Below, piece by piece: positions 30,901 to 64,000 of a stretch of 64,000 nt of DNA. This stretch comes from Paraspadella gotoi (lineage: Eukaryota > Animalia > Chaetognatha). Made by a program: the position numbers and the translations under genes. The first letter of the stretch is position 1. Each line of letters opens with the position of its first letter. The notes under the pieces were generated by a model. It ran no database searches. It had not been told where the DNA came from and saw nothing but the letters and a program-made list of their open reading frames with translations. Where the stretch lies: contig CM119270.1 in NCBI GenBank assembly GCA_051294375.1, positions 8,667,213 to 8,731,212 of the forward strand, read 5' to 3'.

Positions 30901-31557
30901 ACACTAAAGTTTCCAGATAGAGCTAACCTTAAAGGGATAAAGAAACAAATGCTAATTTTTTTTATAGAAAACAGTAATCGTTCGAATAACAGCACAACTT
31001 TTTCATAAAGCAAATGTAATATATGTAGTATGAAACTATGTCTATGGCTTATAAAATTGGTACAACCAATATAAAAATTATCCATTCATTTAATAAATAA
31101 GCTATAAATAAGCTTTCAATCAAGACTCTCCACAGTCTCGTTTATTCACTCCCAGAGTACCCGGCTTCCTTATCAAAGAAGTAGCATAAAATCTCACAGA
31201 ATGTTTCAATCGTATTTACTTACATGCTAGAGCGGAGTACAATATAGTATTCCCCGATCTAATACTTAAGGGAGTGGTCTTTTCATACAATTGAAACATT
31301 CTTTGAAACAATACACTACTTCATTGATAGGGAAGCCAGGGTACTCTGGGAGTGAAATAAACGAGACTGTGAGAAAGTCTTAATTGAAAGCTTGCAGGGA
31401 ACTGCTATGTCATTATCTTGTAAGAGTGATGGAGGCCTTAAACCACCAAAGTCAGGGGCAAGATAGCTTGTTTATTAAATTGATAATTTTTATATTGGTT
31501 TGTAGTCGGGCATAGCAAAGTTCACCCCGCCTCTAAGCATTAAATCCTTCAGTTGTA

Positions 31558-31627
31558 ACCCGGTGGCTCATTGAGTAAAGCCATCAGCTCATGACCACTA
31601 GGTACCGGGTTCAATCCCAACCCGGTA
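31558..31627 (+). promoter_or_regulatory. tRNA-derived internal Pol III promoter (A box TGGCTCATTGAG, B box GGTTCAATCCC)
   Basis: Resembles tRNA-Lys/Met scaffolds (CCCGG..GCTCA..GTAAAGC..CATCAG CTCATGA..GGGTTCAATCCC). Acceptor and anticodon stems do not pair, so it is not a functional tRNA. Second copy at 22091-22159. Confidence 0.7.
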
Positions 31628-31635
31628 CCTACTCT

Positions 31636-59600: not shown

Positions 59601-62600
59601 CTCCTCTAAAAGTTTCAAATGCGATACTGATACAAAACTCATTTATAAACAACATCAGATTCAACTTGATGTTCTGTTTGTCCGATATTGAGTTTGCACC
59701 ACAAGTTTGATATCCGGTTTCACCTGGTTCCTTCTGTCTCATTCTGTCTTGATTATGACAACTGCAGACAAGCGCATATATTCAGAATTTATGTTCTTTA
59801 AAATTCAATCGTGACTCGATCCTCGTCGATCGACATGAGTGAAAAAAGTCCAGGGAGCGACGGCGCGGCCGTCGGCTCCGGAATTGGCCACCATGGCGTC
59901 GTTCCTGCGAGGGGCGCCGCCAGGGGCCGTCCCAGATCTCAGTGCGCCAACCGCGAATCTTCTCGCACTCGATCTTGCTCTCAAACTCGCGGCGACGCCA
60001 CGACCCGACGTCACAGCGTGGATCCCACGCCGTCGGCCTCTTTCCTTCTCCCACCCGGTCCCCTATCTCAAACGGTGACCCGCCCCTTTTCCAGTTCCAA
60101 CTGTGATAACGGTTCCACTTTTCACGCGGCGCCGTCTCTTTCTTCTCAGTCAAGAGAATATCACGATCACCGCTGCTTGGAAAATTATCATTTTAACCAT
60201 CCGCATTTTTATGAGCAAATCCCCGAAGAGCATTTTCACCATTATCATTCTCTTCAACCGCCCGAACATTCACGCATCCCAGTCGAGGATGTTAATCAAG
60301 AGACCCAGCAGGATTCTCACAATTATAATCTCTCCCATCTTCTCAATCAGAGCCAAGAAACCCCTTATCAACACCACCAACCTAAAAACCCCAATGAACT
60401 TCGAGAAATCGTCGAATTCGACCATCAATCCTCGGACATTTCCGTATTCTCATTAGGTCCGCCCCAACATAACGAGGGCCCTCACGAACATGTCTCACTG
60501 CTTGGCAACATTGTAGACGATGAACCATCTTTCGACTTTCAAACTTTGTACACGGACTTGGGATCATTCGGATCACATCATTCTACAGCAGGGAATATCT
60601 CCTCTCCTTCAATTCAAACCCCTTCTTCCGACTTCAACGCATACAGCTTGTCACAGAACATCAATTCGACGCGTCCCTCTGCCATCGCTACGTCCTCCGG
60701 CCATCTTTCTTTCTCTGGGTCCTCCTGTTCCTTCTATTCCTCTACCGCACCACGCTCTACTTCCTTTTTGGCCCCGATGAGCTCCTCCAGTGCCGCATCT
60801 TGCAACACTTTCAACACATCGTCTTCGTTCTGTCCAACATCTAATTTGTGTTCCGTCAAGCCTTCGTCGTCCCTCGACCATGCCGCGGGAACGTCGCACG
60901 TTCCTCCCAACAATCTCACCTGTCTCGAGAGTTCCATTGTCTCGGATCCCGCGACCAACGCTCTCGGTTTCCAAACCTCCGACGGCCAATCCTCCAAAGT
61001 CTCCCGAAGCTTTTCCACGAATCCTCCGGGGATTTTCGCGGAGCCGTCGTCGAGCATTCAACCGCTCACGATCGGCGAACCTTTCTCCCGTCACTCTGAA
61101 GCTTGTATAGTCGAATCGCCGTCCCAATCACCGATCTCTTCGTCGATTCGGCACGCGAGAGAAGCTTGGACCACGGCCGCGTCCCGCAACGCAATCGCGA
61201 TGGCCGATATCGACTCTGGCGCCCTCTCGTCGAGAGGCGCCTCGGTGCGGAACGCGAGAAAATCGACGGGCGCCGAATTTATGGACGTCGGCTGTTGGAC
61301 CGGCGGCGAGGAGATGAATAAACCAATGAGCGAGGGACGGAGAAATCGACGGGCGTCGTCGTCGATGTCAAGATTTCCGGGGGAAATTGATCCTTTAAAT
61401 CATCTGCGTCATCGTCGTCGTCACTTAAGTCGAACTCAAAGGGGGTGAGAGAAAAAGGGCCGATTTTACGAGTCGGGGTCGTTACTACCAGAGTAAATCG
61501 CTAAACTAATCGAAAATGTTTTTCCTGCTTAAATTTCGTTATGTTGTTCCTCTAGTGTTTTTTCCTGTTTCTTATTTTTGATATATTTTTTTATTTCTCT
61601 TTTTTTTTTGATGGGGACTTGGGGAGTTAATATAAAGGTAATTTTGGTTTTCTTTTTTTTCCTATTTTTTTTTCCTTTCTTTCCCTCAATACGTAATCTT
61701 TGAAACCTCGCGCAACGAAAGCCTCGTTAAAGCTTACGCCTTTTTGAAGTAAATCCTTGTGCTATTTGGATTAGTGGGAAACTGTAAAAATCAATAGAAA
61801 TGTAAATGTTTTCGGGAGCTGACTGACATGTGAATGGAAAGCACCAATATCGAAAATCGTAAGGTAGTCATTTTCATGAAAAAAATCGATTGTGTCTACT
61901 GTCATAGATTTGTGTATTATTAATACTTATCCTAATTTTGATAATGAAACGTATTATATAATTTTATATATTACCAAAATCACCCTTATGAATGAATTAT
62001 GAGTAGGTCTGACGATAATTTACCTTATTACCTACTCTTTGCTCCTTCTGAAAGGTTTTAATAGGTTTAATTTATACTTCCAATTTACAAAGTTTAAACG
62101 CTTTTGCTTTTTCTCATTCTTAGGCTCAATGACCCGATCGTGAAGCAAGAACGCGAAGCTCCGAAAGAAACAGCAGGAGATCCAGATGAGGCTCCAAATC
62201 CTTCACTTCCGCCCGACAGAAGGAAAGGCGCTCATCTCGTTACCAAGGCAACAGGTTGGTTGAGGGACGGGTTGTATATCATGACACAAAGTTCCTTAAG
62301 CCTTAAGCCTTAAGCCTTAAGCAAGATAAGGAATATAAAAGATCTAACATTCTACTATATAGTATATTATGAGGTTTAAGTTCATAATCTAATTAAATTA
62401 ACCACAAGTTAATTTAAACTACGTATTTAATACCACTGCCAAAATTTCGAAGCATACTTTTTTTAATAAAAAAAAGTTATGTTGCGATTTTTTTTTGAAA
62501 ATAATATGAAATGATTACTATTGTAATCATACCAAATTGTTGCTATTTTTTGAAGTATGAGTTTTTTATTTTGTTTTACGGTAATTCTTTCTATTTATTG

Positions 62601-64000
62601 AAGTAACTCGTAATGTATTATATTTTAAATTTTTTTCTCGCTCCGCTCTCCTTCCCTTTAAGACACGTTGCCCCCGACTATGTCGTCGTCGTCGTCGTCG
62701 CCTCCAGCGTCGTCGACAACGACGACGAGTCAGATGCTCCTCCAGCAACAGCCCCATCACCTCTCCGTCGTCTCCGCTCGTCAGACTCTGCTTCAAGAAG
62801 CGGCGTCGTCGAGCGGCGGAGGCAACGGCGCCTCCCTGGCCTCGGTGGCTGCGGCCGCCGCCGCTCACCTGAACGCCGCCGTCGCGCAACAGCAGCAACA
62901 GCAGCAGCTTTCGTCGTCGCTGCAGGAACAACAATTACTTCTGGCGGCGGCGGCGGCGGCCGGGAGCGGCGCGGCTACTCCGCCGCCGACGTCCACGTTG
63001 CTTTCCTCATCGTCGTCGTCGACTCCGTCGCCATCCTCTTCTCATCTCATCCTACAGGGTAGCATCACGCAACAGCAGCTCCAGCATCCCCAGCTTCATC
63101 CTCATCATTCACAGCATCACCAGCAACAGCAAATACTCGTAGGACAATTGAACGCGGGTTCGCCGTCTTACGCGGCAGCGGCGGCAGCTGCGGCAGCGGC
63201 CGGTCTGGGTTTGCCACAGGTGGTGGTCAAGCAGCAGGCGCCGTCGCCCGGGGTTTCGTCGCAATCGTCGTCGACGCATCAATTGCAACAGCAACATCAC
63301 CGAGTCGTTTCCTCGCCCAAGTCTCTCGTCGTCGTCGACAACAACAATCATCATCTGAGGTTGTTTATTTTTAGATTGTTTCTTTAAATGAGTAATAAAA
63401 TACTATTTACAAGACAAAAGAAAGAGAGAGAAAATAAAAGGAACAAAAAATAAAGAAGTAAAATAAAGACAATAAAGAAAGAAAGAAAGAAAGAAAGAAA
63501 AAAAGAAAAAAAGAACGAATAACCGATTAGCCAGCCAAGAGACAAAGAAAGAAACAAAAATAATACCATATTATGGCAACAGCCGGGTTGCCTGTGATGC
63601 TCATTGGGATGGGGCATCTCACTGTTGGCTTTGAGGGCTTCCGACCCTCAGTGACGCCTCCAGTCACTGGCGCGGTTACCCTAGGACGGTCTCGCTTTGC
63701 CAACGCAGAGGGAAGTCATTAGGACTGTGGATGGAACACTACGCCTGGGATGGTGTGTTCCCCCTCTGAGCCAATGGATTTGGCTGAACGATGGTGGACG
63801 TGAGGCGGTGTGAATATACCGCCACAATATCATACATAGGATGTGATGATCTCTAATTTTTCTTTCCCTCTCCACTTTCCACAGAGTCTCCAGTCCCCAC
63901 GCGCTCGTTCCATCCTCCCAGCTATACGCTTCTCCGCACGGCGCCGGAACCTCGGCTTCGGCGTCCCAGTCTTCGTCGCAGCCTTCGCCAGACACGAGTT
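50685..64000 (+). CDS. large S/P/Q/A-rich low-complexity protein (probable nuclear regulator), runs off the window; exons 50685-51706, 52039-52409, 52862-53711, 62124-62254, 62663-63359, 63885->64000
   Basis: All six exons have GT-AG junctions with matching phases (2,1,2,1,2) and no stops. N-terminal PPPKRPK is NLS-like, VKQE is a SUMO-like motif, and there are polyQ/polyA tracts. No folded domain is visible within the window. Confidence 0.8.
56764..56813 (+). mobile_element. terminal fragment of solo-LTR family 2
   Basis: TGTGGCGGTATATTCACACCGCCTCACGTCCACCATC..CAGCCAAATC is the reverse complement of ~63777-63826. Confidence 0.85.
59835..61444 (+). CDS. alternative first coding exon (~536 codons) of the same gene
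   Basis: 1.6-kb open frame from ATG 59835, with an in-frame TAA upstream. It ends GG|GTGAGA in phase 2, matching the phase-2 acceptor at 62124. Confidence 0.65.
62293..62322. repeat. (CCTTAAG)4 heptamer repeat
   Basis: Directly visible in an intron. Confidence 0.85.
63572..63826 (-). mobile_element. solo-LTR-like element family 2 (255 bp) with twister fold, intronic
   Basis: Terminal inverted ends TATGGC / GCCACA (5/6 match); 4-bp TSD ATAT at 63568-63571 and 63827-63830; GC-rich and hairpin-rich within an AT-rich intron. Confidence 0.78.
63624..63704 (-). ncRNA. twister ribozyme, P5-type circular permutation
   Basis: Minus strand reads GTTGGC AAA GCGA GA-CCG TCCTAGGG T^AA CCGC GC CAGTGAC-TGGAGGC-GTCACTG AGGG TCGGAAGC CCTC AAA GCCAAC. 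P5, P2, P3, P4, T1 (CGG:CCG) and T2 (GC:GC) all form. Predicted cut between 63678 and 63677. Confidence 0.8.

Follow-up and report, generated by a model that had tools for sequence, protein, structure and literature searches.

Two solo-LTR-like elements of Paraspadella gotoi carry candidate twister-class motifs with a palindromic P1 segment

To our knowledge, long terminal repeat (LTR) retrozymes are known only with hammerhead ribozymes and mainly in plants, and twister ribozymes, which are widespread, have a biological role shown only for RTE-type non-LTR elements. Here we describe two elements, E1 and E2, in a window of 64,000 nt from the chaetognath Paraspadella gotoi (contig CM119270.1; GC content 37.7%), the window being the whole stretch of DNA that was analysed. 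Our favoured reading, which we hold at about even odds, is that E1 and E2 are solo LTRs of two diverged families in one lineage of small non-autonomous elements resembling Helenus miniature terminal-repeat retrotransposons (TRIMs), and that both contain a motif of the twister class, P5-permuted and with a predicted self-cleavage site at U^AA.

Plant LTR retrozymes are small non-coding elements of the LTR type with target-site duplications (TSDs) of 4 bp and a ribozyme in the LTR (Cervera, Urbina and de la Pena, 2016; PMC4918200; bioRxiv 10.64898/2026.07.22.740005). E1 and E2 share with them the 4-bp TSD (by empty sites in E1, apparent in E2), the ribozyme motif within the LTR and a proposed LTR-to-LTR cleavage that would give a circularised unit RNA. 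In contrast, the plant ribozyme is a type III hammerhead that is active as a monomer in plant hosts, whereas the motif described here is twister-class, has a palindromic P1 and is found in an animal, in solo LTRs only. Helenus TRIMs (TRIMp3; Kojima, 2024) are the closest described animal elements. Their families have 4-bp TSDs, TGT..ACA LTRs of ~100-320 bp and RNA polymerase III (Pol III) boxes A and B in the LTR, and 51 families are described in pteriomorph bivalves (PMC10886601). The ends and the 4-bp TSD of our elements fit this description (with ATA at the 3' end of E2), and the first 9 nt of E2 are the start of one oyster family (PMC10886601); a tRNA-like sequence is clear in the Helenus LTRs, however, while only box-like remnants are seen in E1 and E2. 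PMC10886601 makes no mention of twister (0 occurrences). In its supplement, CCAAGCC and GGAAGCC are found only in internal parts of wasp families, although line wraps could hide some occurrences, and the twister loop motif is not in the bivalve Helenus LTRs examined (supplement parts 1 and 6 of 11). As a separate observation, the LTR entry preceding Helenus-1_ToGe-I (hymenopteran) in DataS1 of PMC10886601 contains a hammerhead-like string, CTGATGAG, then a helix and CGAAAC; that paper does not discuss ribozymes. If this string is real, a published animal TRIM already has a self-cleaving ribozyme in its LTR.

Both elements lie where a preliminary description of this DNA had placed them (Table 1). 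E1 sits within one copy of a ~330-bp repeat. At three paralogous empty sites (4420-4660, 4090-4330 and 4750-4990, reverse strand) the sequence is ..ATATTGGTTGTACCAATTT.., which has GGTT once; at the E1 locus it is ..ATATTGGTT[E1]GGTTGTACCAATTT.., i.e. GGTT, E1, GGTT. E1 is therefore a true insertion of 282 bp with a 4-bp TSD. The host repeat family itself is in tandem at 4191-5163, with further copies at 21641-22033 and 31110-31500. The TG..CA ends and 4-bp TSDs attributed to both elements in the preliminary description hold for E1 (TGTAG..CCACA; GGTT). In E2, ATAT is seen at the flanks only and the 3' terminus ..GCCATA makes the element TG..TA type, its ends being one mismatch off a TGT..ACA inverted pair. 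The 5' boundary of the E2 family is fixed, because the fragment at 56764-56813 begins at the same TGTGGCGG; downstream of this fragment no matching 3' end or TSD is found. The copy at 22034-22316, formerly counted as a further one, shares the flanks of E1 and lies inside an 8-kb duplication, and thus represents the same insertion rather than a second one. In the window, nhmmer detects no further diverged copies of E1 or E2. The terminal inverted repeats (TIRs) of the two elements measure just 5-6 nt, with a mismatch. The TGT..ACA-type ends, the 4-bp TSD, the size of 255-282 bp and the lack of long TIRs all fit solo LTRs, as had been proposed, and we regard this part of the reading as quite probable.

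The consensus features of twisters follow Rfam alignments, the CHiTA text and general background on the class. In both elements the parts follow the order P5, AA, P2, GA, T1 triplet, P1 segment, UAA, P2, GC, P3 hairpin, P4 with a U-NNN-AAGC loop and P5, in agreement with the consensus line of Rfam Twister-P5. The U^AA and the general-base G in GA are present in E1 and E2, and the T2 pseudoknot is GC:GC in each. The T1 pseudoknot is GGA:UCC in E1 and CCG:CGG in E2; all three pairs differ on both sides and all are Watson-Crick, so that the covariation noted earlier stands in full. When the helices are aligned from the core outwards, double changes that keep the pairing are also found at three pairs of P5 and two pairs of P4. 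The ordered motif had been recognised correctly in both elements, except that P4 of E2 was misread by one base (the C of AAGC was counted twice). Because AAGC is followed by CCTC, this helix is either AGG/CCU with a 9-nt loop or AGGG/CCCU at the cost of T2, and the P4 loop of E2 is accordingly imperfect (a 3-bp P4 with an extra G, or 4 bp with the C of AAGC). Compared with the type-P5 twister (Rfam RF02684, clan CL00120), E1 and E2 agree in element order, U^AA, GA, T1, T2, the U-NNN-AAGC loop L4 and the optional P3, and differ in their sub-gathering scores, the unfoldable palindromic P1, the shorter P2 and the 3-bp P4 of E2.

According to CHiTA, A1, A2, the general-base G, both pseudoknots and the loop adenines are mutation-sensitive, while imperfections in P1 and P2 are tolerated and P1 is dispensable (PMC11662667). 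All of the sensitive positions are intact in E1 and E2. A core descriptor (GA with the T1 complement, UAA, N3-4, GC, P4 and U-NNN-AAGC, in a relaxed form required for E2) has no matches in the window other than E1, its duplicate and E2. Over 400 random 64-kb first-order Markov windows, the strict form gives 2 matches (0.005 per window) and the relaxed form 15 (0.0375 per window), rates that serve as a guide rather than a clean test, since the descriptor was written with the sequences already seen. The twister-type architecture with its covarying pseudoknot is real, and a chance origin is unlikely.

The preliminary description took E1 and E2 as unrelated families. However, their first 80 nt give a local score of 14, compared with 7.7 +/- 1.4 for shuffles, and only 3/2000 shuffles reach it; the rest of the two elements, including the twister, is similar at shuffle level (181/500), and BLAST and nhmmer return no cross-match between them. 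The common blocks run in the same order, TGT, TTCACNCCGCCTC, ATCNTTCAG, TGGCTCA, GTTCNATCC and CTCTGCG, followed by the twister. Because the 5' 80 nt are similar and the block order is the same, we treat E1 and E2 as two diverged families belonging to a single lineage. In our view, selection on the motif is argued for most strongly by its architecture, which has been kept while the twister sequence drifted to background similarity. We consider it likely that E1 and E2 carry a genuine conserved twister.

Several observations concern the 5' block. Box-like sequences, TGGCTCA.. in both elements and GGTTCAATCCC in E1, all lie upstream of the twister. A tRNA origin of the box region was considered: the region is unrecognised by ARAGORN at default settings, and at 70% thresholds the program gives a weak tRNA-??? 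over the box region plus a spurious tRNA from the twister region. At the 5' end, E2 has a 6-bp hairpin, GGCGGU..ACCGCC (63803-63824, minus strand), and E1 a shorter one, CGGG..CCCG (31507-31529, plus strand), at the matching place; these hairpins may represent a conserved 5' LTR structure. Metagenome contigs were scanned with a 19-base pattern from the common 5' block. The 18 loci matching this pattern were discarded as chance matches, as nothing is alike beyond the pattern and ~10 would be expected by a rough estimate.

A departure from P5-type twisters that the preliminary description had missed is in P1. Between T1 and UAA, each element has a palindromic segment without room for a loop (CGGCCG in E1 and CCUAGG in E2), which makes a hairpin impossible, and the stem-loop P1 of P5-type twisters is thus missing from E1 and E2. 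The intramolecular fold of this segment has an energy of 0.0 kcal/mol in both elements, whereas the self-duplexes reach -14.1 kcal/mol (E1) and -11.0 kcal/mol (E2). The cofolded dimer of E1 has -65.1 kcal/mol compared with 2 x -29.3 kcal/mol for the monomers, and in its structure the intermolecular ACGGCCGU helix is present alongside P3 and P4. Because a palindrome replaces P1, dimer-dependent cleavage is suggested; on this modelling we put it forward tentatively, at somewhat under even odds. Alternatively, P1 may simply be dispensable, as indicated by CHiTA and Liu et al.

Two described systems bear on this feature. Dimer-only hammerheads with a tiny palindromic helix III, through which two copies assemble the active form, are described from animal satellites and Penelope-like elements (Cervera and de la Pena, 2014; PMC4209133). 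As in those of Penelope-like elements, the cut-site helix in E1 and E2 is a short palindrome and the motif lies in the terminal repeats of a retroelement; the ribozyme and the element class are different, and dimer cleavage is only predicted for E1 and E2. In Schistosoma mansoni, T-variant twisters are found at the 5' end of Perere-3 (RTE), and there the TSD supplies the rest of P1 (Liu et al., 2021; PMC8501958). In them, as in our elements, a retrotransposon is served by a motif of the twister class whose P1 departs from the standard; their place is the 5' end of a non-LTR element, compared with the middle of an LTR-type repeat here.

Several observations weigh against our reading. The preliminary description had called for an Rfam twister search, and this yields sub-threshold matches only. 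At gathering thresholds, Rfam has no match anywhere in the window. In E-value mode on 500-551-nt stretches around the elements, E1 matches Twister-P5 with 16.0 bits against a cut-off of 37.6 (E = 0.81, at 31644-31707) and E2 matches twister-P1 with 14.4 bits against 67.2 (E = 5.5, at 63672-63629), both far below gathering; in the E2 stretch, two unrelated Rfam families have better E-values than twister-P1. The Rfam twister models are without pseudoknot scoring and the P5 model is without P3. The twister clan (CL00120) is matched weakly, at exactly the predicted places in both elements, and hammerhead families are not among the Rfam matches for E1 or E2. In nearest-neighbour folding, in which pseudoknots are ignored, the nested twister helices of E1 have -20.8 kcal/mol compared with a minimum free energy (MFE) of -29.3 kcal/mol, and those of E2 -20.0 compared with -32.6 kcal/mol, so that they are less stable by 8.5 and 12.6 kcal/mol, respectively. 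The MFE structure of the E1 monomer is not the twister fold and has z = -0.09 against shuffles; that of E2 has z = -2.2, and the same on the opposite strand. Thermodynamic folding was therefore dropped as support. In addition, the dimer cofold of E2 is without the P1 palindrome helix.

The same holds for details of the motif and of the elements. P2 has just three pairs, with a bulge in E1 or a mismatch in E2; P4 of E2 has 3 bp or competes with T2; and the parse of the motif is post hoc, the sequences having been seen first. The TSD of E2 is apparent from its flanks only, and the 3' end of this element is TA. There are only two independent loci, both solo, and within the window no paired LTRs, primer-binding site (PBS) or polypurine tract (PPT) are found. 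The family scan covered 52 of the 140 open reading frames (ORFs) of at least 90 aa in the window; among those 52, no reverse transcriptase (RT), integrase or GIY-YIG endonuclease family is detected, and the lack of RT and integrase counts on this side. No tRNA is found in E1 or E2 by ARAGORN at default settings or by Rfam at E<=10.

These observations are shared in part by other explanations. The twister-like motif could be a decayed or never-active look-alike without a role, in otherwise ordinary solo LTRs. The sub-threshold Rfam scores, the unfavoured twister fold, the missing P1 hairpin, the weak P2, the imperfect P4 of E2 and the possibility that both solo copies are old all agree with such a relic. 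However, a relic would hardly keep every CHiTA-sensitive position in both diverged families, nor paired double changes where the similarity is at background; the descriptor background of 0.005-0.0375 per window speaks against it as well, and decay would not yield a palindromic P1 segment twice. We therefore consider a relic unlikely, though the least unlikely of these alternatives. If the elements are solo LTRs and the motif is active, it might instead act as a monomer with a dispensable P1 (PMC11662667), replacing a terminator by forming the 3' ends of transcripts driven from the LTR (possibly by Pol III), with no dimer and no circular RNA. The sense strands of E1 and E2 lack a TTTT run, and motifs like boxes A and B lie upstream of the twister, which would fit this view; the Pol III boxes are weak, however, the same cut in a 5' LTR would strip R from the genomic RNA, and the two palindromes are left unexplained, so that we give a monomeric terminator little credence.

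The remaining explanations concern the class of element. Hammerheads are absent from Naiad-type Penelope-like elements, which have a preference for (TA)n targets and are dominant in bivalve genomes (PMC8557442), and E2 and its fragment lie in TA-rich DNA; the elements could accordingly derive from Naiads, as tail pieces, pseudo-LTR pieces or non-autonomous derivatives, and the twister could be that of the Naiad tail. A Naiad tail would be expected beside an ORF combining RT and GIY-YIG, at a (TA)n target and lacking a clear TSD. But E1 has a clean 4-bp TSD outside microsatellite DNA and TGT..ACA ends, and the fixed 5' terminus common to E1, E2 and the E2 fragment would not result from random 5' truncation. 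With no RT or GIY-YIG ORF among the scanned ones either, descent from Naiads appears improbable. Non-autonomous DNA transposons of a Ginger-like or Sola-like family, in which a 4-bp TSD goes with TGT..ACA termini, would also be conceivable, since this combination is not known to be exclusive to LTRs; as the TIRs measure just 5-6 nt with a mismatch and the module order resembles that of Helenus LTRs, we judge this very unlikely.

On the favoured reading of solo LTRs with an active twister, a mechanism can be proposed. A ribozyme in the middle of the LTR would cut any transcript that spans it and, unless the ends were rejoined, would damage a canonical R-to-R genomic RNA. Two LTR copies, in one LTR-to-LTR transcript or in two transcripts, would pair via the palindrome and build P1 in trans. 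Transcripts spanning both LTRs would then be cut at both twisters, releasing a unit-length RNA with 5'-OH and 2',3'-cyclic phosphate ends that a host RtcB-type ligase could close; such closure has been shown for animal hammerhead retrozymes (PMC7229834). Starting at the PBS, the reverse transcriptase of a helper LTR element would copy this circle. With a palindromic P1, only two-copy RNAs would be cut, so that a lone solo LTR would remain largely uncut. The full circular-RNA cycle, which follows the one proposed for plant hammerhead retrozymes, is speculative, and we think it rather unlikely.

Table 1. Positions of E1, E2, their twister-like parts and related features in the window.
Feature	Position	Strand	Details
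E1	31501..31782	+	282-bp solo-LTR-like insertion; ends TGTAG..CCACA; 53.5% GC
E1 left TSD GGTT	31497..31500		single GGTT at paralogous empty sites
E1 right TSD GGTT	31783..31786		single GGTT at paralogous empty sites
E1 duplicate with flanks	22034..22316	+	98.9% identical; inside 8-kb duplication
Empty-site copies of E1 host repeat	4090..4990	-	tandem, ~330 bp each
5' block common with E2	31501..31575	+	TGT, TTCACNCCGCCTC (31521-31533), ATCNTTCAG, TGGCTCA; alignment, shuffle test
Box-A-like TGGCTCATTGAG	31564-31575	+	E1, in 5' block
Box-B-like GGTTCAATCCC	31608-31618	+	E1
E1 twister-like motif	31636..31714	+	P5-permuted
E1 P5	31636-40/31710-14	+	AA next
E1 P2	31643-46/31661-63	+	G(U)GU/GCC, 3 bp plus U bulge
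E1 catalytic GA	31647-48	+	
E1 T1	GGA 31649-51 : UCC 31697-99	+	
E1 P1 palindrome CGGCCG	31652-57	+	8-nt ACGGCCGU 31651-58 counting T1 A and U before cut
E1 predicted cut	T31658^A31659	+	U^AA, 31658-60
E1 T2	GC 31664-65 : GC 31702-03	+	
E1 P3	31666-90	+	8 bp
E1 P4	31691-95/31704-08	+	5 bp
E1 L4 UUCCAAGC	31696-31703	+	
E2	63572..63826	-	255-bp solo-LTR-like element; ends TGTGGC..GCCATA; 57% GC
E2 flanks ATAT	63827-63830 and 63568-63571		apparent TSD
E2 fragment	56764..56813	+	first 50 nt of E2, 96% identical; starts at same TGTGGCGG
E2 twister-like motif	63624..63704	-	
E2 P5	63704-699/63629-624	-	6 bp; AA next
E2 P2	GCG(A) 63695-92 : (C)CGC 63675-72	-	3 bp plus A.C mismatch
E2 catalytic GA	63691-90	-	
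E2 T1	CCG 63689-87 : CGG 63643-41	-	
E2 P1 palindrome CCUAGG	63685-80	-	
E2 predicted cut	T63678^A63677	-	U^AA, 63678-76
E2 T2	GC 63671-70 : GC 63638-37	-	
E2 P3	63669-49	-	7 bp
E2 P4	AGG 63648-46 : CCU 63636-34	-	3 bp, extra G in L4
E2 L4 UCGGAAGC	63644-37	-	

The surroundings of the elements show further features. The ORFs of the window include RING/B-box ORFs and an amiloride-sensitive channel exon, which mark it as animal DNA. The two copies of the 8-kb tandem duplication (20226-28078 and 29693-37494) are 94% identical, with many 1-nt indel differences, and the second is immediately preceded by an N gap (29668-29692); the duplication may be genuine and segmental, or an artefact of (haplotype) assembly. 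On the minus strand, the duplicated DNA contains a RING-finger ORF (22342-22755 and 31846-33291), of which the second has 481 codons and ends ~60 bp from E1, on the opposite strand. Host read-through from this ORF would therefore carry the twister in antisense. Each copy of the duplication also contains a pair of inverted repeats of ~840 bp, 84-95% identical and ~1.3 kb apart (24902-25747/27916-27075 and 34383-35215/37339-36507), which may belong to an element of the fold-back or TIR type. Related low-complexity arrays resembling microsatellites are numerous and dispersed across the window, at 535-655, 17572-17690, 45910-46555, 47934-48046, 58461-58525 and elsewhere.

A literature search, with subscription papers outside its coverage, found no paper in which LTR, TRIM, Helenus or retrozyme elements are tied to a twister, and no description of a dimer-type twister. 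We raise as a possibility, and a rather unlikely one, that animals have LTR retrozymes of their own: miniature Helenus-like elements in which the twister P1 forms only between two copies, so that full LTR-to-LTR transcripts alone would be cut, circularised and copied. Such elements would mirror the plant hammerhead retrozymes, with a twister as the ribozyme and a dimer as the gate. If the reading is true, twisters would serve retrotransposition in a second way, from within the LTR of a TRIM-like animal element, and the retrozyme idea would extend to animals and to another ribozyme class. The palindromic P1 would then be the first twister counterpart of the dimer-only hammerheads, and would account for such motifs being missed by Rfam and descriptor searches in which a P1 stem is demanded.

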